Source: Antedon mediterranea (taxonomy: Eukaryota; Animalia; Echinodermata). From it: a stretch of 64,000 nucleotides of DNA. The notes under the pieces were generated by a model. That model ran no database searches, was not told where the DNA came from, and saw nothing but the letters and a program-made list of their open reading frames with translations. The translations under genes and the position numbers were made by a program. Below, piece by piece: positions 1 through 42,540 of the stretch; the stretch's first letter is position 1; the number at the start of each line of letters is the position of its first letter. The stretch is from positions 11,385,888 to 11,449,887 of the forward strand of contig NC_092676.1 of assembly GCF_964355755.1 (NCBI RefSeq), read 5' to 3'.

Positions 1-3000
1 TTCACAAGAAGTTACGCGCGCACGCGCATTTAAAATTTCAAAATGCGCAAAATTAATTTCTAATCAACTTTTTACGCGTTTCATGTCACTTTGAGCATGT
101 CAAAAATTCCCACGGGCGCGCAATTTTTTACGCACGCGGTGCGCACGTAGCGATAAAAACATATTTTTTTCTCTTGAATTATATTTTTCAAGCCTTTCCT
201 AGTAATTTTGAAAACAATTTAGACCTTTTCCAGTTTAAATAACGCCATACGAACACGTTGAATTAGACAATTTGTGCGCGTTTTTTATGAAAAAGCTTAA
301 AAAATCATCAAAATAATGTCTTTTTTTAAACAGTCATAGTTTCTAAAGTAAACCGTGAACCGGTTATTTTTATTACAAAATCTAGAAGTTGATGAGTTGC
401 AGATATCGGATCATGCATCGATAAGGCTAAAAAAACATTGTGACGTAATCGTTTGGCCACACGAATGTAAAATATAGGATTTTTGTCTGTTTCGTTATTG
501 CTCATCACATTCAATGGAGCGCATCACGCTTATCTGTATTCCTTTTTCTCCTATATTTATATATTGTTTAGGTCAATCAACTTTCTTTAGCATGAGATAA
601 AAATATTTAAATTTTTATAACGTCATCATGCCTAAAAATTTTAATTACTTGGGTCATTAATTTCATCTTTACAGTAAATTTTAATCTGTAATACCTCGTA
701 AGAATAAAATGTGATAATCACGATTAAAACGTTTTCTGGAAGCTATAGGATTGTAGATACGTACGAATTCATGTAAACATTTTGCCAATCGGATGTTGTG
801 ACGTCATCATATTGCCAGTTGAATAAAAAAAGTCGTATTTTCATATTTTGCGTAATAGTTCATCACATTTAAATGTGCGCGCACCAACATTTTACGTATT
901 CAAATTTCTTCTACACGTTAATATGTTGTTGCTAAGATAATTTTCTTCAGAAATTGCTATCGTTGTGTTGTTTTTTTTATGACGTCATCATGTTAAATAT
1001 TTGAATTAAAGGCAGGTCCATTAATTCAGTTAATATGTCATATAATATACAGTAGTACAATGTACACCAGCATAGTCTCTGATGTGAGCAAATTGTTGTT
1101 TGCCGCCCTCTGTATCATGTAGAATTAATGTCTCCTTTTATACACAGTGTACTGTATAATTATAATACAAGGCGAAAATACAGGACCACCTCTTATAGTT
1201 TTTAACGTATGACGTGCACGTGGCATCTGTCGTGCGGATAACTAACTCGTCAAAGTGACGAGTTTCATGTCTAGTTGGTTATCCGCAACGAAGTTGCAGG
1301 ATAACCTCTTGTGATTGTACGAAATCATCAACATCAACTTTTTATTTTTTGGTTATCCGCAACGAAGTTGCAGGATAACCTCTTGTGATTGTACGAAATC
1401 ATCATCAACATCTTTTTTAGTTATCCGCATTGAGCGGATAACTCCTTGTTATTGTCCAGATTCTTTTTGGTTATCCGCAACTTAGTTGCAGGATAACCCA
1501 TGTGATTGTAAATATCTTTTTTGGTTATCCGCACTTGGCGGATAACCTCTTGTTATTGTCAGGATCTTTTTTTTTTTTTTTTTTTTTCTTTATTCTTCTT
1601 TCTTTCCACGAATTTTGTTCGCAGCGTATCTCTAATTCTGGCCAACATATGATTGTATAACTTTGTCAAAAGGTTGCCCTGTAGCTGTAGATGTGCAAGA
1701 AACTTTTTTTTAAAAATTTCGAGTCGCGCAGCGTAAGTTACGCGCGATTTTATGAATTTCAATGATTGATCATAGAATAAAAACTAATAATCATTTTGTA
1801 TTGAAACTTGGAGAAACTTTAAGTGATATCATGCGCAAAGTTTCTATGGATTGAAAATGGCATGTTTCAAAAAAAGTTACGCGCGCACGCGCGTTTAAAA
1901 TTTCAAAATGCGTAAAATTAATTTCTAATCAACTTTCTACGCGTTTCAGGTCATTTTGAACATTTCAAAAATTCCCACGCGTGCGCAATTTTTTTACGCG
2001 CGCGTGCGCTTTTAGCGCAAAAACATCTTCTTTTTGCTTGATTTTTGTTTTTTCAGCCTTTTCTAGTAAATTTACCAATTTTCAATCAATTTCAACTTAA
2101 AATTACGTCATACGAGCACGTAGAATTGAACAATTTGTGCGCGTTTTTGATGAAAAAGTTCAACAATTCGTGAAAAGTATGCCTTTTTTAAAACAGTCAT
2201 AGATTCTAAACTCCATGGTGAACTTTTTTAAAATTTCAGATTCTGGAAGTAGATGAGTTGTATTTCTCGAATCATGCATCGATATGGCTAACCGGACATT
2301 GTGACGTCATCATATGGCCACTCGAATATAAAATATAGGATTTTTGTCTCTTTCGCATAGCTCATCACATTTAATAGAGCGCATCTCCACTTATCCGTAT
2401 TCCATTTCCCGCCATTTTGTTATATTGTCTAGGCCAATCAATTATCTTTCGCATAATCTACCATTTTTTAAATTGTGATGACGTCATCATGTCCAAAAGC
2501 GTCAATAACTTTGGTCTCTTATTTTCACCTATTCTGCACTGTATGTAGTACGTATACAGAATATAGCGTATACCGTATATACTTTGACGCGACGCAAAAT
2601 TGAGAGCGCACTAACATTATTTCAATGGCGTAATCGTATTTCTGCGCGCAATATTCTAACGTATGACGTGCACGTGGCATTTGCGCTGCGGATAACCTAA
2701 CTCGTCCGTAGTGACGAGTTCAAATCTAGTTTTTCATCATCTTTGTTCTTCTTTCTTTTCCTGATTTTTGTGAGCAGCATATCCCCTATTGCTTGTGAAT
2801 ATATCTTTTGTATAACTTTGTCATTATATGGACATTTATCTGAAGTTGTGCACCTCCATATTTTGAATGACGTCAGAGTTGCGCAACGTGACTTACGCGC
2901 GATTTTATGAATTTCAATGATTGATCATAAGATAAAAAATGAAAGTCATTTTGTATTGACATTTGGTGAATATTTAAGTCATATCAAAGGCAAACTTTCT

Positions 3001-6000
3001 ATGGATTAAAAATGGCATGTTTTACAAGAAGTTACGCGCGCACGCGCATTTAAAGTTTCAAAATGCGCAAAATTAATTTCTAATCAACTTTCTGCGGTGA
3101 TCATGACATTTTGAGCATGTCAAAAATTACCGCGCACGCGAAAAATTTTACACGTAAGGTGCGCACGGAGCATGAAAAATATGTTTTTTTCTCTTGAATT
3201 GTGATTTTCCAGCATTTCCTAGTCATTTAAAAAAGGATTGGCATCATTGCAAATTAAAATGACGTCATACGAACACGTTGATTTATACCAATTGCGCCCG
3301 TTTTAGTTGAAAAAGTTATAAAATATTGTCAAAATAATGCCTATTTTGAATCTATTATAGCTCTTCAGGATCAATGGTGACCCCCAATTGTTTTAACTTA
3401 TTATGTAAGAAGATAAATTGTAGATATGAATTCATACAAAATTTTTACCTCTCGGATGTTATGACGTCATCGTATGGCCACACGAATAAAAAAAATATAG
3501 GATTTTTGTCTTTTTCGTTATTGCTCATCACATTCAACAGAGCGCATCTTGCTTATACGTATTCCATTTCCCCCAAGATTTTAATATTGTCTACGTCAAT
3601 CAACTATCTTTCAAATGAGTTAAAAATATTTTAATTTTTTTGACGTCATCATGTCTTAAAATGTAAATAACGTGGGTCACTTATTTTCATCTTTACAGAA
3701 AATTTCAATCTGTTATAGCTCGTCAGAATAAAAAGTGATAATCATGATTAAAATGTTTTCTGGAAGGTATTAGATTGTAGATATGAATTCATGTCAATAT
3801 TTTGCCAATCAGATGTTGTGATGTCATCATATGGCCAATTAAATTCAAAAAGTCATATTTTCATCTCTTGCGTAAAAGTTCATTGCGTTTAAACGAGAGC
3901 GCATTTCACTTTCACGTGCCCAAAATTCTTCAAATTTGTATTAATGTAATTATTTAGATAAATATCTTCTAAAATTGTTATCTTTATATGCCAATTTGAT
4001 AACGTCATCGTGTTAATAATTGGATTTAAAAGATGGGTCTCGTAATTTCGTCTATGCTACACTGTATATAACATACAGTGTATTCTGTAAACACTTTAAT
4101 ATGCTGTATGCTACAAAATAGGTACAATTCAGCACTGTAAACATTCTTAATTAATGTCATAGGATGGCATAATAATTGTCGAAGTTCATATAGTTTAAAG
4201 TATGTGCATGTTGCGTTTGCGCGGATAACCCGAACTCGTCAAAGTGACGAGTTCAAATCTAGTTCTATGTTATTAGTTATCCGCATAGTAGCGGATAACT
4301 CCTTGTAATCGTCCTGTTACTTTTTTTAGTTATCCGCTTAGTAGCGGATAACTCCTTGTAACTGTATGAAATCATCTTTTTTTTTTTTTTCTGTATTATT
4401 CTTTCTTTCTGTCAATTTTGTGTCTCGCGTATCTCAAAAACTTGTAAACAAAACATTTTATAACTTTCTCAACATGTGGGCATTCACGTGAAATTGTGCA
4501 CCTCCTATTGTGAATGACGTCAGAATTGCGCAACGTGATTTACGCGCGTTTTAACGAATTTCGCGTATTTAACATAGATCGAAAACCATATAGCAATTTA
4601 AATTGAAACTTAACAAAAGTTTAATTTATATCTTGCGCTAACTGACTGTGGAAAAAAAATGGCATGTTTCACACGAAGTTACGCGCGCACGGGCGTTTAA
4701 AATTTCAAATTGCGAAAAATCAATTTCTAATCAACTTTCTACGCGTTTCATGTCATTTTGAGCATGTCAAAAATTCCCACGCGCGCGTATATTTTTACTC
4801 GCACGGTGCGCACGTAGCGTTGAAAATAAAAAAATTTTCGCGTGATTCATGTTTTTCCAGCCTTTTCTAGTAATTTTACCAACTTTTTAACAATTTTGAC
4901 CTAAAATTACGTCATACGGGCACATCCAATTGGATAATTTACGTGCGTTTTTTATGAAAAAGTTCAAAAATTTGTCAAAATTCGTCAAAATTATGCCTTT
5001 TTTTAAACATTCATAGATTCTAAACTACGAGGTGAACTTTTTTTAAATTATATATTCTGGAAGTTGATGAGTTGTAGATATGGAATCATGCATTAATATG
5101 GCTAATCGGAAATTATAACGTCATCGTATGGCCACGCGAATATAAAATATAGGATTTTTATATCTTTCGTCATAGCGCATCACATTTAATAGAGCGTATC
5201 TCCACTTATACGTTTTTTATTTTCACCCCGATTTTGATATTGTCTAGGTGAATGAACTATCTTTCGCATGAGTTAAAAATATTTTAATTTTTATGACGTC
5301 ATCATGTCGAAAATTGTAAATAATGTGGGTCACTTATTTTCATCTTTACAGTAAATTTCAATCTGTTATAGCTCATCAGAATAAAAAGCGATAATCATGA
5401 TTAAAACGTTTTCTGGAAGCTATGGGATTGTAGATACGAATTCATGTAAACATTTTGCCAACCGGATGTTGTGACGTCATCATATGGCCAGTTGAATAAA
5501 AAAAGGCGTATTTTCATATTTTGCGTAATAGTTCATCACATTTAAAAGGGCGCGCATCTATATTTTACGTATTCAAATTTCTTCTACACGTTAATATATG
5601 GTTGCTGAGATAATGTCCTTCCGAAATTGCTATCTTAGTGTTTCATTTTGATACTGTCGCCATGTTAAAAATAAGAATAAACGGGGGGTCTCGTAATGTC
5701 ACCTATTCTACACTGTATGTAACATGTATACAGATTATACCGTTTGCACTGTATATACTATATGACACAAAATTGACAGAATTCAGCACTAACAGCATAT
5801 GATATTCTTCAGTTCAGGTCATAATGCCATAATCTTTTTCCGTGTGCAAAATTCCAACGTATGACGTGCGCGTGGCGTTTGTCGTGCGGATAACTAACTC
5901 GTCAAAGTGACGAGTTCAAGTCTAGTTAGTTATCCGCACTTGGCGGATAACTCCTTGTTATTGTATGGGATCAATATTTTTTTCTGTATTATTAGTTATC

Positions 6001-9000
6001 CGCATTGAGCGGATAACTCCTTGTTATTGTCCAGATTCTTTTACTATGTTATTAGTTATCCGCATTGAGCGGATAACTCCTTGTAACCGTCCTGGATCTT
6101 TTTTTTCTTTATATTATTCTTCTTTCTTTCTCCTCCATTTTTGTGTCTCGCGTATCTCAAAAACTTGTAAACATAATATTTCATAACTTTGTCATCATAT
6201 GGACATTTACGTGAAGTTGTGCACCTCCTATTTTTGAATGACGTCAGAGTTGCGCAACGTGACTTACGCGCGATTTTATAAATTACAATGATTTATCATA
6301 CGATAAAAACTAAAAGTGATTATTAGTTGAAACTTGGTGTAAGGTTAATTCCTATCAAGGGTCAACTTTTTGTGTACTAAAAATGCCATGTTTTACAAGA
6401 ACTTACGCGCGCACGTGCATTTCTCCTCCATTTTTGTGTCTCGCGTATCTCAAAAACTTGTAAACAAAACATTTCATAACTTTGGCAACATATGGGCATT
6501 CACGTGAAGTTGTGCACCTCCTATTGTGAATGACGTCAGAAATGCGCAACGTGACTTACGCGCGATTCTATGAATTTCGCGTATTTAACATAGATTGAAA
6601 ACCATATAACAATTTAAATTGAAACTTAGCAAAAGTTTAATTTATATCTTGCGCTAAGTTTTTGTGCACTAAAAATGGCATGTTATAGACGAAGTTACGC
6701 GCGCACGCGCATTTAAAATTTTGAAATGCGAAAAATCAATTTCTAATCAACTTTCTACACGTTTCTTGTCATTTTGAGCATATCAAAAATTCCCACGTGC
6801 GCGCAAATTTGTATACGCGCTGTTCGCACGTATCGTTAAAAATATACTTTTTTGCATGATTTATGTTTTTCTAGCCTTTTCTAGTAATTTTACTAACTTT
6901 TAAACAATTTCGACTTAAAATTACATCATACGAGCACGTCGAATTGGATAATTTGCGCACGTTTTTGATAAAAAAGTTCAAAAATTCGTCAAAATTATGC
7001 CTTTTTTTAAACAGTTGTAGTTTCTGAACTAAACGGTTAAAATTATTTTTATTCCATATTCTGGAAGTAGATAAGTTGTAGATATCGGATCATGCATTAT
7101 TATGGCTAACCGGACATTGTGACATCATCGTATGGCCATCCGAATATAAAATATAGGATTTTTGTATCTTTCGTCATAGCTTATCACATTTAATAGAGCG
7201 CATCTCCACTTATCCGTATACCATTTTCTCCGAGATTTTAATATTGTGTAGGTCAATCAACTACCTTTCGCATGAGTTAAAAATATTTTAATTTTTATGA
7301 CGTCATCATGACTAAACATTTAAATTACGTGGGTCATTAATTTCATCTTTACAGTAAATTTTAATCTGTTATAGCTCGTACGAATGAAATGTGATAATCA
7401 CGATTAAAACGTTTTCTGGAAGCTATTGAATTGTAGATAAGAAATCATGTGAACATTTTGCCAATCGGATGTTGTGACGTCATCATATGGCCAGTTAAAT
7501 AAAAAATATCGTATTTTCATCTTTTGCGTAATAGTTCATCACATTTAAAAGGACGCACATCAATATTTCACATATTCAAATTTCTTCTACACGCTAATAT
7601 GTTCTTGCTGATATCATTTCATTCCGAATTTGCTATCTTAGTGTTTCATTTTGATACCGTCGCCATGTTAAAAATTGGAATAAATAGCGGGTCCCGTAAT
7701 TTAACCTATTCTACACTGTATGTGATATGTATACAGATTATACTGTGTATACTATATAACACAAAATAACAGAATTCAGCAATAAAAACATATCATATTC
7801 TTCAGTTCAGGTCATAACGCCATAATCTTTTTTCTGTGTGCGTGCACGTGGCGTTTGACGTGCGGATAACTAACTCGTCAAAGTGACGAGTTTCATGTCT
7901 AGTTCTTCTGTCTTTCTTCCTTTTTTTGTGAGCCCTGTTTCTCTAAAATGTGTGAACAGAACATATCATAACTTTGTCAACATATAGATATTTACGTGAA
8001 GTTGTGCACCTCCTATTTTTGAAAAACGTCAGAGTTGCGCAACGTGACTTGCGCGCAATTTTATGAATTTAAATGATTGATCATAGATTAAAAACCGAAA
8101 GTCATTTTGTATTGAGACTTGGTGAAAATTTAATTCATATCAAGAGTCAACTTTCTGTGGATTAAAAATGGCATGTTTCACACAAAGTTACGCGTGCACG
8201 CGCATTTAAAATTTTAAAATGCGAAAAATCAATTTCTAATCAACTTTCTACGCATTTCTTGTCATTTTGAGTATGTCAAAAATTCCCACACGTGCGCAAA
8301 TTTTTACGCGCGAGGGGCGCACGTAGCTTTAAAAACATACTTTTTTCGCGTGATTTATGTTTTTCCAGCCTTTTCTAGTAATTTTACCAACTTTTAAACA
8401 ATTTCGACTTAAAATTACGTCATTACGAGCACGTCGAATTGAATAATTTGCGCGCGTATTTGATCAAAAAGCTAAAAAAATCGTCAAAATTATGCCTTTT
8501 TTTAAACAGTCGTAGTTTCTAAACTAAACGGTGAAAGTTATTTTTATTACATATTCTGGAAGTTGATGAGTTGTAGATATCAAATCATACATTAATATGG
8601 CTAACAGGACATTTTGACGTCATCGTATGGCCACGCGAATATAAAATATAGGATTTTTGTCTCTTTCGTTATTGCTCATCACATTCAATGGAGCGCATCA
8701 CGCTTATCCGTATTCCATTTTCTCCGAGATTTTAATATTGTCTAGGTCAATCAACTACCTTTCGTATGAGTTAAAAATATTTTAATATTTGTAACGTCAT
8801 CATGCCTAAAAATGTTAATTACTTGGGTCATTAATTTCATCTTTACAGTAAATTTTAATCTGTTATCGCTCGTAAGCGGATAACTCCTTGTTATTGTCCA
8901 GATTCTTTTACTATGTTATTAGTTATCCGCATTGAGCGGATAACTCCTTGTAACCGTCCTGGATCTTTTTTTTCTTTATATTATTCTTCTTTCTTTCTCC

Positions 9001-12000
9001 TCCATTTTTGTGTCTCGCGTATCTCAAAAACTTGTAAACATAATATTTCATAACTTTGTCATCATATGGACATTTACGTGAAGTTGTGCACCTCCTATTT
9101 TTGAATGACGTCAGAGTTGCGCAACGTGACTTACGCGCGATTTTATAAATTACAATGATTTATCATACGATAAAAACTAAAAGTGATTATTAGTTGAAAC
9201 TTGGTGTAAGGTTAATTCTTATCAAGGGTCAACTTTTTGTGTACTAAAAATGCCATGTTTTACAAGAACTTACGCGCTTTTAAACAATTTCGACTTAAAA
9301 TTACGTCATTACGAGCACGTCGAATTGAATAATTTGCGCGCGTATTTGATCAAAAAGCTAAAAAAATCGTCAAAATTATGCCTTTTTTTAAACAGTCGTA
9401 GTTTCTAAACTAAACGGTGAAAGTTATTTTTATTACATATTCTGGAAGTTGATGAGTTGTAGATATCAAATCATACATTAATATGGCTAACAGGACATTT
9501 TGACGTCATCGTATGGCCACGCGAATATAAAATATAGGATTTTTGTCTCTTTCGTTATTGCTCATCACATTCAATGGAGCGCATCACGCTTATCCGTATT
9601 CCATTTTCTCCGAGATTTTAATATTGTCTAGGTCAATCAACTACCTTTCGTATGAGTTAAAAATATTTTAATATTTGTAACGTCATCATGCCTAAAAATG
9701 TTAATTACTTGGGTCATTAATTTCATCTTTACAGTAAATTTTAATCTGTTATCGCTCGTAAGAACAAAATGGGATAATCACGATTAAAATGTTTTCTGGA
9801 AGCTATTGGATTGTAGATACGAAATCATGTAAACATTTTGCCAATCGGATGTTGTGACGTCATCATATGGCCAGTTAAATAAAAAAAGTCGTATTTTCAT
9901 CTTTTGCGTCATAGTTCATTACATTTAAAAGAGCGCGCATCAATATTTCACGTGTTCAAATTTCTTCTACACGTTAATATGTTGTTGCTGAGATAATTTC
10001 CTTCCGAAATTGCTACATTCGCGTTTCATTTTGAAACCGTCAATATGTTAAAAATTTGAATAAATAGCGGGTCCCGTAATTTCACCTATTCTACACTGTA
10101 TGTGATATGTATACAGATTATACTGTGTATACTATATGACACAAAATAACAGAATTCAGCAATAAAAACATATCATATTCTTCAGTTCAGGTCACAATGC
10201 CATAATCTTTTTCCGTGTGCAATATTCCAACGTATGACGTGCACGTGGCGTTTGTCGTGCGGATAACTAACTCGTCAAAGTGACGAGTTTTATGTCTAGT
10301 TAGTTATCCGCATTGAGCGGATAACTCCTTGTAACTGTCCTGTTACTTTTTTTAGTTATCCGCATTGAGCGGATAACTCCTTGTAACTGTCCTGTTTCAT
10401 CATCTTTTTTTTTTTTTTTTTTCTGTATTTAGTTATCCGCATTGAGCGGATAACTCCTTGTAACTGTCCTGTTTCATCATCTTTTTTTTTTTTTTTTTTT
10501 TTTTCTGTATTCTTCTTTCTTTCTGTCATTTTTGTGTCTCGCGTAACTCAAAAACGTGTAAGCATAACATTTCATAACTTTGTCAACATGTGGGCATTTA
10601 CATGAAATTGTGCACCTCCTATTTTTGAATGACGTCAGAGTTGCGCAACATGACTTATGCGCGTTTTTCCGAATTTCGCGTATTTAACATAGATCGAAAA
10701 CCATATAACAATTTAAATTGAAACTGAAAAAAAGTTTAAGTTATATCTTGCGCTAACTGACTATGGGGAAAAATGGCATGTTTCACACGAAGTTACGCGC
10801 GCACGCGCGTTTAAAATTTCAAATTGCGAAAAATCAATTTCTAATCAACTTTCTACGCGTTTCATGTCATTTTAAGCATGTAAAAAATTCCCACGCGCGC
10901 GCTTTTTTTTACGCGCGCGGTGCGAACGTAGCGTTGAAAACAATTTTTCTCTCGTGATTTATGTTTTCAAGCCTTTTATAGTAATTTTACCAACTTTGAA
11001 ACAATTTCGACTTCAAATTACGTCATACGGGCACGTCGAATTGGATAATGTATGTGCGTTTTTGAGGAAAAAGTTCAAAAATTTGTCAAAATTATACCTT
11101 TTTTTAAACAATCATAGATTCTAAACTACGAGGTGAACTTTGTTTAAATTACATATCCAGGAAGATGATAAGTTGTAGATAAGGAATCATGCATTGATAT
11201 GGCAAACCGGACATTGTGACGTCATCGTATGGCCACGCGAATATAAAATATAGGATTTTTGTATCTTTCTTCATAGCGCATCTCATTTAATAGAGCGCCT
11301 CTCCACTTATCCGTATTCCATTTTAACCCAGATTTTGAAATTTTCTAGGTCAATCAACTATCTTACGCATGAGTAAAAATTTTTAAAATTTTTATGACGT
11401 CATCATGTCTAAAAATGTAAATAACGTGGGTCACTTATATTTATCTTTACAGTAAATTTTAATCTGTTATAGCTCATCAGAATAAAATGTGATAATCACG
11501 ATTAAAACGTTTTCTGGAAGCTATTGGATTGTAGATACGAATTCATGTAAACATTTTGCCAATCGGATGTTGTGACGTCATCATATGGCCAGTTGAATAA
11601 AAAAAGACGTATTTTCATATTTTGCGTAATAGTTCATTACATTTAAAAGGGTGCGCATCTATATTTTACGCATTCAAATTTCTTCTACACGTTAATATGT
11701 TGTTGCTGAGATAATTTCCTTCTGAAATTGCTATCTAAGTGTTTCATTTTGATACCGTCGCCATGTTAAAAATTTGAATAAATGACGGGTCCCGTAATTT
11801 CACCTATTCTACACTGTATGTAATATGTATACAGATTATACTGTTTGCATGTATATACTATATGACACAAAATTGACAGAATTCAGCACTAACAGCATAT
11901 CATATTCTTCAGTTCTTGTCATAATGCCATAATATTTATCTGTGTGCAATATTCCAACGTATGACGTGCACGTGGCGTTTGTCGTGGTGCGGATAACTAA

Positions 12001-27000: not shown

Positions 27001-30000
27001 GATACAGATTATACTGTGTATACTATATATGAATTTATATATAGATAAAATTCAGCAATAACAACATATCATATTCTTCAGTTCAGGTCATAATGCCAAC
27101 GTGACCACTTCCTTTTGTCCTCAACCTATCCCCTTAATGTTAATGTTGCACCACTTGCGCGGCGGATAACCAAACTCGTCAAAGTGACGAGTTACATGTC
27201 TAGTTCTTCTTTCTTTCTGTCATTTTTGTGGGTCGCGTATCTCAAAAACGTGTAAACATAACATTTTATAACTTTGTCAACATGTGGGCATTTACGTGAA
27301 CTTGTGCACCTCCTATTTTTTAATGAAGTCAGAATTACGCAACGTGACTTACGCGCGATTTTATGAATTTCGCGTATTTGACATAGATCGAAAACCATAT
27401 AACATTTTAATTTGAAACTTATCAAAAGTTTAATTTATATCTTGCGCTAAGTTTTTGTGCAAAAAAAATTGCATGCTTTACACAAAGTTACGCGCGCACG
27501 CGCGTTTAAAATTTCAAAATGCGCAAAATTAATTTCTAATCAACTTTCTACGCGTTTCATGTAATTTTAAACATGTCAAAAATTCCCAGGCCCGCGCAAA
27601 TTTGTACGCGCGCGGTACGCACGTAGAGTTAAAAACATATTTTTTTCGCGTGATTTATGTTTGTTCAGCCTTTTCTAGTAATTTTACCAACTTTTAAACA
27701 ATTTCGACTTCAAATTACGTCATACGAGCACGTTGAATTGTACAATTTGTGCGCGTTTTTGATCAAAAAGTTAAAAAAATCGTAAAAATTATGCCTTTTT
27801 TTAAACAGTCGGAATTTCTAAACTACACGATCAACTTTTTGTGGATGACATATTCTGGAATTTAATGAGTTGTAGATATCGGATCATGTATTAATATGAC
27901 TAACCGGATATTGTGACGTCATCGTATGGCAACGCGAATATAAAATTTAGGATTTTTGTATCTTTCGTCATAGCTCATCACATTTAATAGAGCGCATCTC
28001 CACTTATCCGTTTTCCATTTTCACTTCGATTTTGATATTGTCTAGGACAATCAACTATCTTTGGCACGAGTTAAAAAAAAATGTATTTTTATGACGTCAT
28101 CATGCCTAAAACTTTTAATTACGTGTGGCCAGGCATTAATTTCATCTTTACAGTAAATTTTAATCTGTTATAGCTCGTAAGAATAAAATGTGATAATTAC
28201 GATTAAAACGTTTTCTGGAAGCTATTGGATTGTAGATACGAAATCACGTGAAAATGTTGCCAATCGGATGTTGTGACGTCATCATATGGCCAGTTAAATA
28301 AAAAATGTCGTATTTTGATCTTTGCGTCATAATTCATTACATTTAAAAGACCGCGCATCAATATTTCACGTATTCAAATTTCTTCTACACGTTAATATGT
28401 TGTTGTTGAGATAATATCCTTCCGAAATTGCTACCTTCGCGTTACATTTTAAAATGGTCAACATTTTAAAAATTGCAATAAATGACACGTCCCAAAATTT
28501 CACTTATTCTACACTGTATGTAATTATTTATACATATTATACTATATATTATACTATATGACACAAAATTGACAGAATTTAGCACCAACATATCATATTC
28601 TTCAGTTCAGGTCATAATGCCATAATTTTTTTCTGTGTGCAATATTCTAACGTATGACGTGCCCGTGGCGTTTGTCGTGCGGATAACTAACTCGTCAAAG
28701 TGACGAGTTACATGTCTAGTCTTAATCTTCTTTCTTTCTGTATGATTTTTGTGTAACGCTTTTCTCTAAAACTTGCAAACATAACATTTTGTTAACTATG
28801 TTAACATTTTGACATTTATGTAACGTCGTCAAGCGAAGCTTTTCATGATGTTTACAATTGCGCAACGTGACGTACGCGCGATTTAACGATTTTCTCGTAT
28901 TTAACATATGTCGAAAACCAAATAACATTTTAAAGTGAAACTTTGCAAAAGTTTAATTTATATCATGCGCTAACTTTCTGTTGAAAAAAATTGCGTGTTT
29001 TACACAAAGTTACGCGCGCACGCGCATTTAAAATTTCAAAATGCGCAAAATTAATTTATAATCAACTTTCTACGCGTTTCATGTCGTTTTAAGCATGTCA
29101 AAAATTCCCACGCGTGCGCACATTTTTACGTGTGCGGTGCGCACGTAGCATTGAAAACGTATTTTTTTCGCGTGATTTATGTTTTTCCAGCCTTTTCTAG
29201 TAATTTTACCAAATTTTAAACAATTTCGACTTAAAGATACATCATACGAGCACGTCGAATTGGACAATTTGCGCGCGTTTTTTATGAAAAGGTTAAAAAA
29301 TTCGTTTAAAATATGCCTTTTTTTAAACAGTCGTAATTTCTAAACTAGACGGTCAACTTTTTGTGGATGACATATTCTGGAAGTAGATGAGATGTAGGTA
29401 TCGGATCATGCATTAATATGGCTAACCGGACATTGTGACGTCATCGTATGGCCACGCGAATATAAAATATAGGATTTTTGTCTCTTTCGTCATAGCTCAT
29501 CACATTTAATAGAGCGCATCTCCACTTATTCGTTGTCCATTTTCACCCCGATTTTAATATGTTCTAGGTCAATCAACTATCTTTTGCATGAATTAAAAAT
29601 ATTTTAATTTTTTCAACGTCATCATGCCTAAAAATTTAAATTACGTTGGTCATTAATTTCATCTTTACAGTAAATTTTAATCTGTTATAGCTCGTAAGAA
29701 TAAAATGTGATAATCACGATTAAAACGTTTTCAGGAAGCTATTGTATTGTAGATACAAAATCATGTGAAAATTGTGCCAATCGAATGTTGTGACGTCATC
29801 ATATGGCCAGTTAAATACAAAAAGTCGTATTTTCATTTTTTGCGTTATATTTCATTACATTTAAAAGAGCGCGCATCAATATTTCACGTATTCAAATTTC
29901 TTCTACACGTTAATATGTTGTTGCTGAGATAATTTCATTCTGAAATTTCTACTTTTGCATTTCATTTTGAAACCGTCAAGATGTTAAAAATGACAATAAA

Positions 30001-33000
30001 ATACGGGTCCCGTAATTTCACCTATTTTACACTGTTTGTGATATGTATACAGATTGTACTGTGTATACTATGTATATGACACAAAATAACAGAATTCAGA
30101 AATAACAACATATCATATTCTTCAGTTCAGGTCATAATGCCTTAATAGTTTTCTGTGTGCAATATTCTAACGTATGACGTGCACGTGGCGTTTGTCGAGC
30201 GGATAACTAACTCGTCAAAGTGACGAGTTTCATGTCTAGTCTTCTTTCTTTCTGTATGATTTTTGTGTAACGCTTTTCTCTAAAACTTGCAAACATAACA
30301 TTTTGTTAACTATGTTAACATTTTGACATTTATGTAACGTCGTCAAGCGAAGCTTTTCATGATGTTTACAATTGCGCAACGTGACGTACGCGCGATTTAA
30401 CGATTTTCTCGTATTTAACATATGTCAAAAACCAAATAACATTTTAAAGTGAAACTTTGCAAAAGTTTAATTTATATCATGTGCTAACTTTCTGTTGAAA
30501 AAAAATTGCGTGTTTTACAAAAAGTTACGCGCGCACGCGCATTTAAAATTTCAAAATGCGCAAAATTAATTTATAATCAACTTTCTACGCGTTTCATGTC
30601 GTTTTAAGCATGTCAAAAATTCCCACGCGTGCGCACATTTTTACGTGTGCGGTGCGCACGTAGCATGGAAAACGAATTTTTTTCGCGTGATTTATGTTTT
30701 TCCAGCCTTTTCTAGTCATTTTACCAAATTTTAAACAATTTCGATTTAAAGATACGTCATACGAGCACGTCGAATTGGACAATTTGCGCGCGTTTTTTAT
30801 GAAAAGGTTAAAAAATTCGTTTAAAATATGCCTTTTTTTAAACAGTCGTAATTTCTAAACTGGACGGTCAACTTTTTGTGGATGGGATATTCTGGAAGTA
30901 GATGAGTTGTAGATATGGGATCAGGTATTAATATGGCTAACCGGACATTGTGACGTCATCGTATGGCCACGCGAATATAAAATTTAGGATTTTTGTATCT
31001 TTCGTCATAGCTCATCACATTGAATAGAGCGCATCTCCACTTATCCGTTTTCACCCCGATTTTGACATTGTCTAGGTCAATCAACTATCTTTCGCATGAG
31101 TTAAAAATATTTTAATTTTTTTGACGTCATCATGCCTAAAAATTAAAATCACGTGTGGCAGTAATTTCATCTTTACAGTAAATTTTAATCTGTTATAGCT
31201 CGTAAGAATAAAATGTGATAATCACGATTAAAACTTTTTCTGGAAGCTATTGGATTGTAGATACGAAATTATGTAAAAATGTTGCCAATCGGATGTTGTG
31301 ACGTCATCATATGGCCAGTTAAATAAAAAAGGTCGTATTTTCATTTTTTGCGTTATAATTCATTACATTTAAAAGAGCGCGCATCAATATTTCACGTATT
31401 CAAATTTCTTCTACACGTTAATACGTTGTTGCTGAGATAATTTGCTTTCGGAATTACTACCTTCGCGTTTCATTTTAAAACCGTCAACATGTTAAAAATT
31501 GCAATAAATAGCGGGTCCCGTAATTTCACCTATTCTACACTGTATGTGATATGGATACAGATTATACTGTGTATACTATATATGAATTTAAATAATAAAA
31601 TTCAGCAATAACAACATATCATATTCTTCAGTTCAGGTCATAATGCCAACGTGAACACTTCCTTTTGTCCTCAACCTATCCCCTTAATGTTAATGTTGCA
31701 CCACTTGCGCGGCGGATAACCAAACTCGTCAAAGTGACGAGTTACATGTCTAGTTATTAGTTTTTGGTTATCCGCAACGAAGTTGCAGGATAACCTCTTG
31801 TGATTGTACGAAATCATCATCATCATCATCATCATCAACTTTTTTGGTTATCCGCAACGAAGTTGCAGGATAACCTCTTGTGATTGTACGAAATCATCAT
31901 CATCAACATCTTTTTCTTAATCTTCTTTCTTTCTGTATGATTTTTGTGTAACGCTTTTCTCTAAAACTTGCAAACATAACATTTTGTTAACTATGTTAAC
32001 ATTTTGACATTTATGTAACGTCGTCAAGCGAAGCTTTTCATGATGTTTACAATTGCGCAACGTGACGTACGCGCGATTTAACGATTTTCTTGTATTTAAC
32101 ATATGTCGAAAACCAAATAACATTTTAAAGTGAAACTTTGCAAAAGTTTAATTTATATCATGCGCTAACTTTCTGTTGAAAAAAAATTGCGTGTTTTACA
32201 CAAAGTTACGCGCGCACGCGCATTTAAAATTTCAAAATGCGCAAAATTAATTTATAATCAACTTTCTTCGCGTTTCAAGTCGTGTTAAGCATGTCAAAAA
32301 TTCCCACGCGTGCGCAAATTTTTACGTGTGCGGTGCGCACGTAGCATTGAAAACGTATTTTTTTTCGCGTGATTTATGTTTTTCCAGCCTTTTCTAGTAA
32401 TTTTACCAAATTTTAAACAATTTCGACTTAAAGATACGTCATACGAGCACGTCGAATTGGACAATTTGCGCGCGTTTTTTATGAAAAGGTTAAAAAATTC
32501 GTTTAAAATATGCCTTTTTTTAAACAGTCGTAATTTCTAAACTAGACGGTCAAATTTTTGTGGATGACATATTCTAGAAGTAGATGAGTTGTAGAGATCG
32601 GATCAGGTATTAATATGGCTAACCGGACATTGTGACGTCATCGTATGGTCACGCGAATATAAAATTTAGGATTTTTGTATCTTTCGTCATAGCTCATCAC
32701 ATTGAATAGAGCGCATCTCCATTTATCCGTTTTCCATTTTCACCCCGATTTTGATATTGTGTAGGTCAATCAACTATCTTTCGCATGAGTTAAAAATATT
32801 TTAATTTTTTTGACGTCATCATGCCTAAAAATTTAAATCACGTGTGGCATCAATTTCATCTTTACCGTAAATTTTATTCTGTTATAGCTCGTAAGAATAA
32901 AATGTGATAATCACGATTAAAACTTTTTCTGGAAGCTATTGGATTGTAGATACGAAATTATGTAAAAATGTTGCCCATCGGATGTTGTGACGTCATCATA

Positions 33001-36000
33001 TGGCCAGTTAAATAAAAAAGGTCGTATTTTCATCTTTTGCGTCATAATTCATTACATTTAAAAGAGCGCGCATCAATATTTCACGTATTCAAATTTCTTC
33101 TAAACGCTAATACGTTGTTGCTGAGATAATTTCCTTTCGGAATTGCTACCTTCGCGTTTCATTTTAAAACCGTCAACATGTTAAAAATTGCAATAAATAG
33201 CGGGTCCCGTAATTTCACCTATTCTACACTGTATGTGATATGGATACAGATTATACTGTGTATACTATATATGAATTTAAATAATAAAATTCAGCAATAA
33301 CAACATATCATATTCTTCAGTTCAGGTCATAATGCCAACGTGAACACTTCCTTTTGTCCTCAACCTATCCCCTTAATGTTAATGTTGCACCACTTGCGCG
33401 GCGGATAACCAAACTCGTCAAAGTGACGAGTTACATGTCTAGTTAGTTATCCGCACTCAGCGGATAACTCCTTGCAACTGTCCTGTTACTTTTTAGTTAT
33501 CCGCACTTGGCGGATAACTCCTTGTTATTGTATGGGATCAATATTTTTTTCTGTATTATTCTACTTTCTTTCTCGCTATTTTTGTGTAGAGCGTTTCTCT
33601 AAAATGTGTAAACATAACATTTTATAACTTTGACAACATGTGGGCATTTACGTGAAGTTGTGCACCTCCTATTTTTGAATTACGTCAGAGTTGCGCAACG
33701 TGACTTACGCGCGATTTTATGATTTTTTATGATTGATCATAGATTAAAAAATAAAAGTGATTTTTAATTGACACTTTGTGAAAGTTTAATTTATATCATG
33801 CGCTAACTTTCTGTTTGAAAAAAATTGCGTGTTTTACACAAAGTTACGCGCGCACGCGCATTTAAAATTTCAAAATGCGCAAAAATAATTTCTAATCAAC
33901 TTTCTACGCGTTTCATGTCATTTTAAGCATGTACAAAATTACCGCGCGCGCGAAAAATATTACGCGCACGGTGCGCATAGAGCATGAAAATCATGTTTTT
34001 TTCTCTTGAATTGTGATTTTCCAGCCTTTCCTAGTCATTTTCAAAAAGATTGACATCATTTCAAATTAAAATTAAGTCATACGAACACGTTGATTTAGCC
34101 CATTTGCGCGCGTTTTAGTTGAAAAAGTTACAAAATGTTGTCAAAATTATGCTTATTTTGAATGTTTTATAGCTTCTCAGGATCAACGATTACCCCTAAT
34201 TTTTTTAACTTAATATGTAAGCAGATATGTTGTAGATATGAATTCATGCAGAATTTTTACCTCACGGATGTTGTGACGTCATCATATGGCCACACGAATG
34301 TAAAATATAGGATTTTTTTGTCTTTCGTTATTGCTCATCACATTCAATGGAGCGCATCACGCTTATACGTATTTCTTTTTCTCCGAGATTTTAATATGTC
34401 TAGGTCAATCAACTATCTTTCGCATGAGATAAAAATATTTTAATTTTTATGACGTCATCATGCCTAAAAATTTTAATTACGTGGGTCATTAATTTCATCT
34501 TTACAGTAAATTTTAATCTGTAATAGCCCGTCAAAATAAAATGTGATAATCACGATTAAAACATTTTCTGGAAGCTCTTGGATTGTAGATATGAAATCAT
34601 GTGAACATTTTGCCAATCAGATGCTGTGACGTCATCATATTGCAAGTTAAATAAAAAAAGTCGTATTTTCATCTTTTGCATCATAGTTCATTATATTTAA
34701 AGAGCGCGCATCAATATTAAACGTATTCAAATTTCTTCTACACGTTAATATGTTGTTGCTGAGATAATTTGCTTCCGAAATTGCTATCTTAGTGTTTCAT
34801 CTTGATACCGTCGCCATGTTACAAATTTGAATAAATGGCGGGTCCCGTAATTTCACCTATTCTACACTGTATGTAACATGTATACAGATTATACTGTTTG
34901 CATGTATATACTATATAACACAAAATTGACAGAATTCAGCACTAACAACATATCATATTCTTCAGATCAGGTCATAATGCCATAATTTTTTCTGTGTGCA
35001 ATATTCTAACGTATGACGTGCACGTGGCGTTTGTCGTGCGGATAACTAACTCGTCAAAGTGACGAGTTACATGTCTAGTTTTTTTTTTTTTCTTTCTTTC
35101 TCCTCTATTTTTGTGTCTCGCGTATCTCAAAAACGTGCAAACATAACATGTTATAACTTTGTCAGCATGAGATCATTCAGGTGAAGTTGTGCACCTCCTA
35201 TTTTTGAATGACGTCAGAGTTGCGCAACATGACTTACGCGCATTTTTACGAATTTCGCCTATTTAACATAGATTGAAAACCATATAGCAATTTAAATTGA
35301 AACTTAACAAAAGTTTAATTGATATCTTGCGCTAACTGAATGTGAAAAAAAATTGGCATGTTTCACACGAAGTTACGCGTGCACGCGCGTTTAAAATTTC
35401 AAAATGCGAAAAATCAATATCTAATCAACTTTCTACGCGTTTCATGTCATTTAGAGCATGTAAAAAATTCCCACGTGCGCTCAAATTTTTACGCGCGCGG
35501 TACGCACGTAGCGTTGAAAACAATTTTTTTTCGCGCGATTTATGTTTTTCCAGCCTTTTCTAGTAATTTTACCAACTTTTGAACAATTTCGACTTAAAAT
35601 TACGTCATACGGGCACGTTGAATTGGATAATTTACGTGCATTTTTGATGAAAAAGTTCAAAAAATTGTCAAAATTTGTCAAAATTATGCCCTTTTTTAAA
35701 CAGTCGTAGTTCCTAAACTAAACGGTGAAAGTAATTTTTTTTGCATATTCTGAAAGTTGATGAGTTGTAGATTTTGGATCATGCATTAATATGGCTAACC
35801 GAACATTGTGACGTCACCGTATGGCCATGCGAATATAAAATATAGGGTTTTTGTATCTTTCATCATAGCGCATGACATTTAATAGAGCGCATCTCCAATT
35901 ATCTGTTTTCCATTTTTACCCCGATTTTTATATTATCTAGGTCAATCAACTATCTTTCGTATGAGTTAAAAATATTTTAATTTTTATGACGTCATCATGT

Positions 36001-39000
36001 CTAAAAATGTAAATAACGTGGGTCACTTATTTTCGTCTTTACAGTAAATTTCAATCTGTTATAGCTCGTCAGAATAAAACGTGATAATCATGATTAAAAC
36101 GTTTTCTGGAAGTTATTGGATTGTAGATACGAATTTATGTAAACATTTTCCCAATCGGATGTTGTGACGTCATCATATGACCAGTTAAATAAAAAAAGTC
36201 GTATTTTCATCTTTTGCGTCATAATTCATCACATTTAAAAGAGCGCGCATCAATATTTTACGTATTTAAATTTCTTCTACACGTTAATATGTTGTTGCCG
36301 AGATAATTTCCTTCCGAAATTGCTATCTTAGTGTTTCATTTTGATACCGTCGCCATGTTAAAAATTGGAATAAATGGCGGGTCCAGTCATTTCACCTATT
36401 CTACACTGTATGTAATATGTATACAGATTATATTGTATATACTATATATGACAAAAAATAACAGAATTCAGCAATAACAACATATCATATTCTTCAGTTC
36501 AGGTCATATTGCCAAAATCTTTTTCTGTGTGCAATATTCTAACGTATGACGTGCACGTGGCCTTTGTCGTGCGGATAACTAACTCGTCAAAGTGACGAGT
36601 TACATGTCTAGTTAGTTATCCGCACTATGGCGGATAACTCCTTGTAACTGTTCTGTTTCATCATCTTTTTTTTTTTTTTTTTTTTCTGTATTATTCTTCT
36701 TTCTTTCTGTCATTTTTGTGCAGAGCGTATCTCTAAACGTGTAAACTTAACATTTTATAACTTTGTCAACATATGGGCAATCACGTGAAGTTGTGCTTTC
36801 CTATAATTGAATGACGTCAGAGTTGCGCAACATGACTTACGCGCGTTTTTATGAATTTCGCGTATTTAACATAGATCGAAAACCATATAACAATTTAAAT
36901 TGAAACTTAGCAAAAGTCTAATTTATATCGTGCGCTAACTTTTTGTGCACTAAAAATGGCATGTTTTACACGAAGTTACGCGCGCACGCGCGTTTAAAAT
37001 TTTACAATGCGAAAAATCAATTTCTAATCAACTTTCTACGCGTTTCATGTCATTTTGAGCATGTCAAAAATTCCCACACGTGCGCAAATTTTTACGCGCG
37101 TGGTGCACACGTAGCGTTAAAAACGTCATTTTTTCGAGTGATTTATGTTTTTCCAGTCTTTTCTAGTAATTTTACCAACTTTTAAACAATTTCGACTTCA
37201 AATTACGTCATACGAGCACGTAGAATATGATAATTTTCGCGCTTTTTTGATGAAAAACTTCAAAAATTCGTCAAAATTAAGCCTTTTTTTAAACAATCGT
37301 AGTTTCTAAACTAAACGGTAAAAATTATTTTTATTACATATTCTGGAAGTTGATGAGTTGTAGATATCAGATCATGCATTAATATGGCTAACCGGACATT
37401 GTGACGTCATCGTATGGCCACGCGAATATGAAATTTAGGATTTTTGTATCTTTTGTCATAACTCCTCACATTTAATAGAGCGCATCTCCACTTATCCGTT
37501 TTCCATTTTCACCCCGATTTTGATATTGTCTAGGTCAATCAACTATCTTTAGCATGAGTTAAAAATATTTTAATTTTTATGACGTCATCATGCCTAAAAA
37601 TTTAAATTACGTGTGGCATTAATTTCATCTTTACAGTAAATTTCAATCTGTTATAGCTCGTAAGAATAAAATGTGATAATCACGATTAAAACGTTTTCTT
37701 GAAGCTATTGGATTGTAGATACAAAATAATGTTAAAATTTTGCCAATCGGATGTGGTGACGTCATCATATGGCCAGTTAAATAAAAAAAGTCGTATTTTC
37801 ATATTTTGCATCATAGTTCATTACATTTAAAAGAGCGCGCATTAATATTTCACCTATTCAAATTTCTTCTACACGTTAATATGTTGTTGCTGAGATAATT
37901 TCCTTCCAAAATTGCTACTTTCGCATTTCATTTTAAAACCATCAACATGTTAAAAATTGCAATAAATAGCGGGTCCCGTAATTTTCCCTATTCTACACTG
38001 TATGTGATATGTATACAGATTACACTGTGTATACTATATATGAATCAAAATAATAGAATTCAGCAATAACAACATATCATAGTCTTCGGTTTAGGTCATA
38101 ATGCCATAATCTTTTTCCGTGTGCAATATTGCAACGTATGGCGTGCACGTGGCGTTTGTCGTGCGGATAACTAACTCGTCAAAGTGACGAGTTTCATGTC
38201 TAGTATTCTTCTTCTTTCTTTCTGTATGATTTTTGTGTAACGCTTTTCTCTAAAACTCGCAAACATAACATTTTGGTAACTATCTTAACATATTGACATT
38301 TACGTAACGTCGTCGACCGAAGCTTTTCATGACGTTTACAATTGCGCAACGTGACTTACGCGCGATTTAACGATTTTGTCTTATTTAACATAGCTCGACA
38401 ACCAAATAACATTTCAACTTGAAACTTTGTAAAAGTTTAATTTATATCATGCGCTAACTTTCTGTTGAAAAAAAATTGCGTGTTTTACACAAAGTTACGC
38501 GCGCACGCGCATTTAAAATTTCAAAATGCGCAAAATTAATTTATAATCAACTTTCTACGCGTTTCATGTCGTTTTAAGCATGTAAAAAATTCCCACGCGT
38601 GCGCACATTTTTACGTGTGCGGTGCGCACGTAGCATTGAAAACGTATTTTTTTCGCGTGATTTATGTTTTTCCAGCCTTTTCTAGTAATTTTACCAAATT
38701 TTTAACAATTTCCACTTAAAGATACGTCATACGAGCACGTCGAATTGGACAATTTGCGCGCGTTTTTTATGAAAAGGTTAAAAAATTCGTTTAAAATATG
38801 CCTTTTTTTAAACAGTCGTAATTTCTAAACTAGACGGTCAAATTTTTGTGGATGACATATTCTAGAAGTAGATGAGTTGTAGATATCGGATCAGGTATTA
38901 ATATGGCTAACCGGACATTATGACGTCATCGTATGGCCACGCGAATATAAAATTTAGGATTTTTGTATCTTTCGTCATAGCTCATCACATTGAATAGAGC

Positions 39001-41215
39001 GCATCTCCACTTTTCCGTTTTCCATTTTCACCCCGATTTTGATATTGTCTAGGTCAATCAACTATCTTTCGCATGAGTTAAAAATGTTTTAATTTTTTTG
39101 ACGTCATCATGCCTAAAAATTTAAATCACCTGTGGCATCAATTTCATCTTTACAGTAAATTTTAATCTGTTATAGCTCGTAAGAATAAAATGTGATAATC
39201 ACGATTAAAACTTTTTCTGGAAGGTATTGGATTGTAGATACGAAATTATGTAAAAATATTGCCAATCGGATGTTGTGACGTCATCATATGGCCAGTTAAA
39301 TAAAAAAGGTCGTATTTTCATCTTTTGCGTCATAATTCATTACATTTAAAAGAGCGCGCATCAATATTTCACGTATTCAAATTTCTTCTACACGCTAATA
39401 CGTTGTTGCTGAGATAATTTCCTTTCGGAATTGCTACCTTCGCGTTTCATTTTAAAACCGTCAACATGTTAAAAATTGCAATAAATAGCGGGTCCCGTAA
39501 TTTCACCTATTCTACACTGTATGTGATATGGATACAGATTATACTGTGTATACTATATATGAATTTAAATAATAAAATTCAGCAATAACAACATATCATA
39601 TTCTTCAGTTCAGGTCATAATGCCAACGTGAACACTTCCTTTTGTCCTCAACCTATCCCCTTAATGTTAATGTTGCACCACTTGCGCGGCGGATAACCAA
39701 ACTCGTCAAAGTGACGAGTTACATGTCTAGTCTTTTTATTGTTTCTGTACACTATTTTGTGTAACAATTATCTCAAAAAGTTTAATGTCAATGATTACCG
39801 AAATTTCAGAATATCTTTCAAATAATATAACTTAATCCTAATAAGCTTTCCAGCGTCATCACTCGTCCGTGACGTCATTTATACGCCATTTTGCGAAATC
39901 ACATTATCAATCATATCTCCATAAATCATTATCACATATTAATGAAATTCACTACACGTAAACTTCAGGTCAAGGGTAAAAATATTAGCAAACAAAAACG
40001 CACGCGCACGTAGGGTCATGCGCGTGAAATCACGCGTTAAAAATTTAAAATGCTCAAAATTAAGTTTTGATCAATTTAGAGCATGAATTAGGCCATTTGC
40101 GTGTTTCAAAAAATTACTGCGCAAAAATGTGAATTTTTTTTACAAATCTCATTCTACTCACCATCCTTAGTACATTCACCAAATTTGAGTCAGTTCCGAC
40201 TTAAAATAACGCTATACGAGCACGTTATAAATGACAAAATGCGCACATTAGTTGTACAAAAGTGCTAAAAATTGTAAAAAGTAGGGCCTTTTTAAAATGA
40301 ATATAACTCTTCAGAATGGAAGATGACCCCTAATTTTTTTAACTTAATATGGAAGCCAATAAGTTGTAGATATAAATGTATATACACATTAGACGTACAA
40401 AATGGTAAGACGTCATCAAATGGCCACTTCCATTAAAAAAATAGTAATTTTTATCTTTTTGTGTGGGTTATCACATTCAATAGAGCGCATCTCCGTTATT
40501 TGAACCCAATTTTCGCACAAATTTTAGTATGTGCTTGCTCAATTAATTATCTTTCTCATGAGTTGTCAACATTTTTATTTTGATGACGTCATCACGCGTA
40601 AAAACTTGAATAAACTAGGTCGTGTAATTTCAGCTACACCATATATTTGAATATCTCATAGCTCTTCAGAATTAAAGGTGACCTTGAAGATTATAACTTA
40701 TTATGAAAGCTGATGAAATGTAGATATGAATTCATATAAAAATTAAGCCTATCGGATGTTGTGATGTTATCATATGGCCAGTTGAAGTTAAAACGTAGTT
40801 TTTTAATTTCTTTAGAAGTTATACAAATTTCAAAGAGCACGCATTGCGCTTATACGTGTCAAATTCTCTTCCAATCCTTATATTTATTTGCTCAATTCAT
40901 TATTTTCGAAATTGTCATCTTCGAATTTATTTTGATAATTCCATTATACCAAAAAATTAGAACATGATGTGGGTCCCATAATTTTACCTATGCTACACTG
41001 TATATAGATATACAGTATATACTGTACATATTGTATATGACACATAATAGGCACAACTAAGCGCTATAAGTGTATATGCATCATGTCATAGGATGGCGTA
41101 CATCAACTTTTTACGATGGTATGTTAACGTACGTGCATGTTTAAAAAATGTTAATTTCATTAAATTGATGAAAATGATCACCTATAATTCGTCAAAGTGA
41201 CGAATTAAATTCTAG
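1..41215 (+). mobile_element. Array of nested non-autonomous Helentron/Helitron2-like elements (HINE/DINE-1-like), ~1.2-1.6 kb each; starts upstream of the window
   Basis: Tails GCGGATAAC(T/C)-aACTCGTCaaagtGACGAGTt-...-CTAGT with CTAG at 1271, 2726, 4259, 5922, 7899, 10296, 12026, 13464 (hairpin deleted), 14635, 16167, 17681, 19555, 21078, 22588, 24094, 25679, 27200, 28716, 30236, 31750, 33439, 35075, 36608, 38200, 39727, 41212. Heads TT(A/G)GTTATCCGC-loop-GCGGATAAC followed by T/CTT/CAT tracts. SubTIRs, 3' hairpin, T-flanked ends and no TSD match known HINE architecture. Confidence 0.85.
39731..41215 (+). mobile_element. Divergent headless HINE-like body, outermost member of the array
   Basis: Colinear with other units but clearly more diverged; ends AATTCGTCaaagtGACGAATT...CTAGT. 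Confidence 0.7.
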
Positions 41216-42511: not shown

Positions 42512-42540
42512 CTGAAAAATTAAACAAACAAATAAGATAG

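Follow-up and report, generated by a model that had tools for sequence, protein, structure and literature searches.

A 40-kb satellite-like array in Antedon mediterranea is very probably a deep nest of HINE-like elements inserted into their own 5′ ends

The DNA described here is a 64,000-nucleotide stretch of the genome of the feather star Antedon mediterranea, a crinoid echinoderm (contig NC_092676.1; hereafter the window), in which positions 1-41215 are covered 20-35-fold by a single repeat family in self-comparison. Between 1277 and 41215, a motif scan found 21 hairpin-bearing 5′ ends (heads) and 25 3′ ends closing on CTAG (tails), all in one orientation, which delimit copies of a non-coding element of about 1.58 kb; a further match, head 8921, was excluded for the reason given below. 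With the tail at 1274 included, 26 of 26 tails from 1274 to 41215 end in CTAG and are followed by T. A preliminary description of this DNA had listed heads that lie stacked one behind the other and bodies that begin without a head right after a CTAG; both observations stood, and every head it listed was recovered at the same coordinate. Its placement of the array start at 1275 did not hold, since the tail at 1274 belongs to an element starting outside the window, so that the array begins before position 1 and extends past the left edge. In its period the array resembles a 1.5-kb tandem repeat, yet it is a real and deep self-nest of HINE-like elements. As read from the sequence, it very probably consists of 25 short mobile elements without coding capacity, with starts and ends that match up as nested brackets (Table 1).

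The six unbroken standard copies are 1583-1599 bp long and start after TT with a hairpin. In all nine unbroken copies examined, an exact inverted copy of the first 10-12 nucleotides ends 30-32 nucleotides before the 3′ end; this terminal inverted repeat is followed by a second hairpin and then by CTAG. The first base of the terminal repeat covaries between the two ends in 11 of 11 unbroken copies. Folding predicted the 5′ hairpin in three of three heads (-10.6 to -12.2 kcal/mol) and the 3′ stem-loop in three of three tails. The linker is T-rich with short ATC/TCT-like runs. TT stands ahead of 24 of 24 heads and T behind 26 of 26 tails, and rejoined hosts match their twins across the break with no target-site duplication, at a resolution that leaves room for small gains of T. 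The longest stop-free stretch of the array in six frames is 94 codons, and Tandem Repeats Finder found no central tandem arrays in it. By these structural features the element qualifies as a non-autonomous member of the HLE2 group (DINE-1/HINE), whose described anatomy agrees with it (PMC11417382; here, as throughout, papers are cited for the accessible part of their text). A canonical Helitron (HLE1) was rejected, as the heads follow TT and terminal inverted repeats are present; the only HLE1-like traits are the CTAG end and the 3′ hairpin. DINE-1/HINE are non-autonomous Helentrons described by Thomas, Vadnagara and Pritham in 2014 (PMC4067079), and the element shares with them the subterminal inverted repeats, the nested 5′ inverted repeat, the 3′ stem-loop, the lack of coding capacity, the TT or T-rich target, the variable terminal T's and the absence of target duplication. 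It differs in that those elements, in the text available, are dispersed rather than self-nested, and in that its own terminal repeats of 10-12 nucleotides are exact and no central tandem repeats were found in it. Central or microsatellite repeats have been reported for DINE-1 and Cg_HINE and are optional in mite HINEs. No RepHel was found in the listed reading frames of the window, and scans with the tail motif gave no match in viral contigs and none in two metagenome scans, so no autonomous partner was found there.

The pairing of heads with bodies was examined in 11 split pairs of the plus strand, anchored by 10 unbroken copies, by comparing the first 48 nucleotides of the heads with about 290 nucleotides of 5′ body. 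The proposed pairing gives a correlation of r=0.675; when 11 of the 14 headless bodies were assigned at random 20,000 times, the mean r was 0.018 and the observed value was never reached. Under it, the 5′ bodies that go with near-identical heads share 92% identity or more in 10 of 10 comparisons. Among the 720 orders of the six outer bodies, four tie for the top, namely the reverse-positional one itself and the variants in which twins of the same type trade places, and the proposed pairing ranks first of 84 order-respecting choices. The pairs given in the preliminary description (1277/30240, 1351/28720, 1419/27204, 4275/25683, 5928/22592, 5994/21082 and 31766/38204) parse without crossings, and its expectation that excising the inner units would rebuild intact elements was borne out by whole-length identities of 94-99% to unbroken copies for the five pairs that have such a twin: 5928+22592 is 99.2% identical to 33495, 10354+12030 is 97.8% identical to 10431, and 1277+30240, 31766+38204 and 1351+28720 are 97.5%, 97.3% and 94.2% identical to 31846, the last with 246/250 matches over the first 250 nucleotides. 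Two rejoined copies, 1419+27204 and 5994+21082, are 98.5% identical to each other over their whole length, and 4275+25683 reaches 85.6% overall, with 237/250 at the 5′ end against unbroken 17696. Heads and bodies pair last-in-first-out. Strict inside-out matching was rejected because four bodies then stay unclosed and heads are joined to bodies of unlike type, with only 2 of 10 twin-head comparisons keeping matching 5′ bodies, and first-in-first-out pairing matched in 0 of 10. The rejoined length did not discriminate, being 1570-1595 bp under strict pairing too.

Several results weigh against this pairing. It was initially picked by resemblance, so that its independent part is only its agreement with the reverse positional order. 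Over the last 1100 nucleotides of the bodies, it gives r=0.36 (reached by 23 of 20,000 random assignments) as against r=0.44 for strict inside-out matching; there, 76 of the 720 outer-body orders equal or beat it, and it falls outside the top 4 of the 84 choices. The covarying terminal-repeat base agrees in all 11 unbroken copies and in 10 of 11 split pairs under strict matching, but in 9 of 11 proposed ones. The misfits are 25683 and 28720; both are mosaics with a 3′ half of another type, so that heads are tied more tightly to 5′ bodies than to tails; unbroken copies likewise give a head correlation of r 0.49 for the 5′ body and 0.14 for the 3′. The pairs of 1469, 10302 and 33445 have no close unbroken twin. 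Three interior bodies (7903, 16171 and 19559) have no head at all, one more than the preliminary description had estimated in calling the interior about two heads short; for a fourth headless body, 39731, the head would lie beyond the left window edge. Over the last 1100 nucleotides, twins still match more often under the proposed pairing than under the strict one (9 of 10 and 2 of 10, respectively). Mosaic 25683 also has blocks of 89% identity, and a reciprocal exchange of 3′ halves between 25683 and 28720 was dropped as an explanation because their switch points differ (about alignment columns 690-770 as against after 825).

Table 1. Parts of the nested array and of the second nest, by position in the window
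Feature	Position	Strand	Remarks
3′ part and tail, head left of window	1..1274	+	tail at 1274; matches other bodies
Head, type A	1277..1350	+	body 30240-31753; 97.5% to 31846 once rejoined
Head, type A	1351..1418	+	body 28720-30239, mosaic with 3′ half like 16171
Head, type B	1419..1468	+	linker resumes 4263-4274; body 27204-28719
Head, divergent type	1469..1522	+	body 2730-4262; bracket order; terminal-repeat base matches tail 4262; best twin 206/250
Unbroken shortened copy, 1207 bp	1523..2729	+	
Body and tail of 1469	2730..4262	+	
Head, type D	4275..4327	+	hosts 4328, 5928, 24100; body 25683-27203
Unbroken copy, 1598 bp	4328..5925	+	
Head, type C	5928..5993	+	body 22592-24097
Head, type B	5994..6053	+	body 21082-22591
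Unbroken 1.85-kb variant with repeated 5′ body block of about 282 nucleotides	6054..7902	+	junction common to 17696, 56822 and body 54944
Headless body with local rearrangement	7903..10299	+	
486-bp duplication around 403-bp copy of 6008-6410	8391..9762	+	contains false head 8921
Head	10302..10353	+	hosts 10354, 13470; body 14639-16170; bracket order
Head, type F	10354..10430	+	body 12030-13467, with partial tail deletion
Unbroken copy at the deepest level (9 by visible heads, 12 inferred)	10431..12029	+	
Internally deleted copy, relative of 17696	13470..14638	+	
Headless body	16171..17684	+	
Unbroken 1.85-kb variant	17696..19558	+	98% to 56822 over 1126 bp
Headless body, twin of 35079	19559..21081	+	99.7% 5′, 98.5% 3′
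Bodies of 5994 and 5928, reverse-order closing	21082..24097	+	
Unbroken copy inserted behind tail 24097	24100..25682	+	
Bodies of 4275, 1419, 1351 and 1277, reverse-order closing	25683..31753	+	
Head, type A	31766..31845	+	hosts 31846, 33445, 36614; body 38204-39730
Unbroken copy, type A	31846..33442	+	
Head	33445..33494	+	hosts 33495; body 35079-36611
Unbroken copy, type C	33495..35078	+	
Unbroken copy	36614..38203	+	
Body of 31766	38204..39730	+	
Divergent body and tail, inferred outermost host, head expected left of window	39731..41215	+	67-70% to other units (BLAST); hairpin, CTAG end
Second independent nest, heads 56963, 56889, 56822, two tails	53521..56963	-	beside pogo/Tigger-type relic

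Wherever a host is visible (18 insertions into 12 distinct hosts), the inserted copy sits at nucleotides 50-84 inside the host's 5′ end and in the host's orientation. Self-insertion into the T-tract some 45-80 bp inside the 5′ end had been proposed in the preliminary description; the position stood, and the T-tract did so only in part, as some sites lack a long T-run, with five insertion points ending in TATT and one in GTATTT. Counted on both strands of six unbroken copies, the zone of nucleotides 50-84 holds about 3.9% of T-runs of at least four and 4.6% of TT steps, and the nominal chance of twelve independent hits in it is about 1e-17 to 1e-16, a figure that ignores any bias against spotting insertions elsewhere. 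The segment table of the array contains no insertion outside the zone. The longest T-run of types A and C is at nucleotide 513 or 819, outside the zone; from this and the TATT sites it follows that poly-T alone is insufficient for site choice. For 22 of 24 heads the insertion site lies 25-53 nucleotides downstream of a GGATAAC motif, the exceptions being 13470, whose preceding tail is deleted, and 56963, which is outermost and sits in foreign DNA. Because GGATAAC occurs only at element ends (none in six bodies), this spacing restates the hotspot and goes no further than to suggest motif-guided nicking. We infer that T content is not the only guide to the site and that the terminal-repeat motif or the hairpin close by directs the choice. 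A tentative extension of this idea, which we regard as rather doubtful in its full form, is that an HLE2 transposase might be recruited by the resident GGATAAC terminal-repeat motif and nick T's 25-53 nucleotides downstream, in the same geometry as at the element's 3′ end, with the second arm of the head serving as landing pad. If so, satellite-like arrays could in general arise without recombination, the family would gain a safe haven, new chimeric subfamilies would be generated, and the nest would be a dated record of insertions 12 levels deep.

The nest is nine levels deep counting visible heads and would be 12 deep if the four headless bodies are counted as hosts, in line with the depth of at least seven proposed previously; the longest split of a single element, 28,889 bp, likewise agrees with the earlier figure of up to about 29 kb. 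Ten of the 21 plus-strand heads are placed just behind the tail of an older element and not directly behind a head, seven of them with exactly TT between, and in these the two elements are of different types, so that they are repeated insertions at one site and not concatemers. Three direct nests are of the same type (1277>1351, 31766>31846 and 10354>10431; identity 94-98%), and in these a local re-insertion of a copy is possible. A type B element hosts a type C element that hosts type B again, and these subfamilies were therefore active together. We hold it to be very likely that the HINE-like copies became nested by repeated self-insertion near the 5′ end, presumably through rolling-circle transposition by a RepHel partner. 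Such a transposase would act repeatedly on the linker of a resident copy, placing new copies of several co-active subfamilies between T's 50-84 nucleotides in from the 5′ end. With every insertion the host body would be shifted downstream, the new copy would contribute a fresh linker of its own and the remainder of the old linker would stay usable, so that heads would accumulate leftward and headless bodies of about 1.5 kb would line up rightward as a satellite-like run.

Some parts of the array depart from a plain bracket structure. The three heads missing between 5994 and 6054 may have been lost by one deletion between near-identical heads. Head 8921 lies inside a 403-bp copy of 6008-6410 (one mismatch, 99.75%) and is not a bracket; the copy is flanked by identical 486-bp blocks (8391-8876 and 9277-9762, 100%). 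The copied piece came from 2.9 kb upstream, with overlaps of 1-2 nucleotides at the joins, and 8391-9762 could be either a recent template switch or an assembly error. The 1.85-kb variant is present in four copies (6054, 17696, 56822 and body 54944) at two loci and on both strands, with a common internal junction at which a head and about 282 nucleotides of one type are joined to a body of another; the blocks are 82-86% alike, and the join lies at an equivalent offset of 74-82 nucleotides, inside the hotspot. The bodies of 17696 and 56822 are 98% alike and their heads differ. The variant is possibly a mobilised nested chimera, the alternative being an old internal duplication, and the family appears to make composites. 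The same nesting pattern recurs at a second locus on the opposite strand, in the order 56963>56889>56822, with tails at 54945 and 53520 and therefore one head in excess; for the last 209 nucleotides of this nest, tried as the end of outer head 56963, the top scores came from several types.

A competing reading is that the array is a satellite, produced from rolling-circle concatemers or by unequal crossing-over of one unit with the head stacks arising through repeated 5′ initiation. In its favour, 15 of the 24 intervals between tails measure 1485-1592 bp, neighbours 10431 and 12030 are 97.8% alike, the mosaic bodies imply some recombination, and tandem Helitron arrays with several 5′ ends have been reported (PMC12628747, citing Xiong 2016). 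An adjacency test on 23 of the 25 units (13470 and 39731 left out) speaks otherwise. As the preliminary description had anticipated, neighbouring units are seldom each other's closest relatives: judged by the 5′ part, 4 of 23 units have their nearest relative beside them, and 3 of 23 when judged by the 3′ part. Median unit identity is 81% (5′) and 88% (3′), and neighbours are hardly more alike than non-neighbours (0.85 vs 0.82 and 0.881 vs 0.871, respectively). Twins lie 6-16 kb apart or on the opposite strand, and no two of the 24 tail junctions exceed 90% identity to each other on both 250-nucleotide sides. The array therefore does not qualify as an amplified tandem monomer, and the unrelated neighbours and unrepeated junctions sustain the earlier proposal that satellite-like DNA was built here without tandem rolling-circle copying. 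A satellite origin also leaves the reverse-order matching of head and body types unexplained; the adjacency and junction comparisons largely refute it, and we consider it very improbable.

It could also be asked whether the order of the units is an artefact of assembling a high-copy family. Five sequencing runs from two studies contain the unique flank; four of the runs are from one sample, and runs X2, X4 and X5, which share a sample, may be the assembly's own source. The family is very abundant, with a summed contig depth about three orders of magnitude over the unique flank as a rough hint and not a copy number (in run X5, 4.6e5-9.9e5 over body 39731 and about 270-350 in the flank, again not copy number), and the exact 486-bp duplication could itself be an artefact. 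Contigs aligned to 39500-43500 include unique-flank pieces with 0 differences. Counting against the nest, none among the contigs listed spans that interval, and there was no spanning read across the array in the data examined. A 10-letter T-rich loose end before 39731 (run X1, small share) was too thin to use. Against an artefact, the units differ by 1-29% and so are resolvable by long reads, mis-joins would not yield a crossing-free last-in-first-out order over 29 kb, and the 12-nucleotide linker remnant at 4263-4274 was kept and matches twin head 5994; an artefactual order is in our view very improbable. More room must be given to the idea that the nesting is real and that parts of it arrived as ready-made composites, either by read-through copying from an inner head, which gives extra tails, or by copying from an outer head to an inner tail, which gives extra heads. 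This would modify the explanation by self-insertion, not replace it, and would account for the headless bodies in 6054-21081 without a deletion. Both copying models are in print (PMC5148889, Fig. 7 legend; PMC3288121, Fig. 4 legend), and the head/body chimera of the 1.85-kb variant, joined inside the hotspot, and the three heads and two tails of the minus-strand nest are in its favour. It requires read-through past three terminators to give a composite of some 6.4 kb or more, however, no second copy of any tail junction exists in the window, and a single deletion of about 200 bp among tandem heads is simpler, so that we regard composites as possible but the less likely source of these parts.

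The surroundings of the two nests are of mixed character. An OSTM1-like gene exon (Pfam OSTMP1; 45337-45801, minus strand) lies about 4 kb from the right end of the array, placing the nest near a host gene; among eight candidates its sole match was an Antedon mediterranea protein (100% identity over 75% of the query). In the right flank, very high contig depth over 42580-42980 and 41910-42180 points to further high-copy repeats, the loose end at 41910-42180 being SINE-like by eye only. An isolated internal piece of the array family of about 460 bp, without ends, is found at 48376-48839 (minus strand; 78-84% to array units). An inverted repeat pair of about 620 bp (49892-50509 and 52261-52858; 72% identity) has an internal periodicity of about 150 bp, and a 56-bp tandem repeat at 59528-59742 (3.8 copies) has related copies 500 bp downstream at 60256-60413. 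A weak L1 ORF1-like match at 52899-53321 (minus strand; Transposase_22, E 6e-4) is below the cut-off. Beside the minus-strand nest is a broken pogo/Tigger-type transposase relic (57243-58278, minus strand), in which the Pfam domains HTH_Tnp_Tc5 and DDE_1 each occupy a frame of their own; beyond the nest, 53308-53420 is a candidate relic terminal region with three short subterminal repeats, and no matching 5′ end for the pogo-like relic was found in the window.

Self-insertion near the 5′ end and nesting are both known already, the former from Fusarium HLE2 elements (PMC5148889) and the latter from maize Helitrons (PMC3288121). FoHeli1-5, the HLE2/Helitron2 elements of Fusarium oxysporum, have repeated 5′ termini 31-85 nucleotides long, for which self-insertion was proposed as the cause, and one copy sits 2 bp upstream of another's 5′ end (PMC5148889); up to five 5′ termini per copy are reported (PMC13342296). 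The stacked 5′ termini are ascribed to self-insertion in both systems. As far as the accessible text goes, each FoHeli stack has a single 3′ end and the self-insertion was inferred, whereas here most host bodies are still in place, in reverse order and at least nine deep over 40 kb. The multiple termini of maize Helitrons were proposed to come from nested copies that then transposed, starting at an inner or an outer end (2011, PMC3288121), but these elements are HLE1 and, in the portion available, without a fixed internal hotspot or a deep ordered array. An HLE2 element with two left ends, HelenXT233, is described from Xenopus (PMC11417382). McGurk and Barbash 2018 (PMC5932611) showed double insertion to be a satellite seed, which resembles the present case in that a site preference that keeps the target usable leads to tandem-like runs of transposable elements; in that model whole elements lie side by side and unequal exchange is then needed, whereas in the array new copies enter a target within the element, and it is the headless body that sets the period. 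The oyster Cg_HINE is likewise a HINE tied to satellite-like DNA in a marine invertebrate and differs in its internal short repeats (PMC7492417). Routes to tandem arrays are reviewed in PMC12628747, and the accessible text of PMC7492417 and PMC12001565 describes no such nesting. A complete last-in-first-out, order-readable and satellite-mimicking HINE nest of this depth was not found in the literature searched, which covered few subscription journals, no Repbase and no supplements.

For the HLE2 elements as a group, biochemical work on target choice has been called for (PMC4067079), and the hotspot, which received all 18 insertions with a visible host and keeps a fixed distance to the terminal repeat of the element itself, provides a sharp prediction on how the target is chosen. 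The nest also gives direct structural support to the self-insertion proposed as the origin of the multiple 5′ termini in Fusarium, and it orders the activity of its subfamilies without a clock. A satellite-like array can grow by insertion alone, and period-based annotation would therefore call such a nest a 1.5-kb satellite or a heap of fragments.

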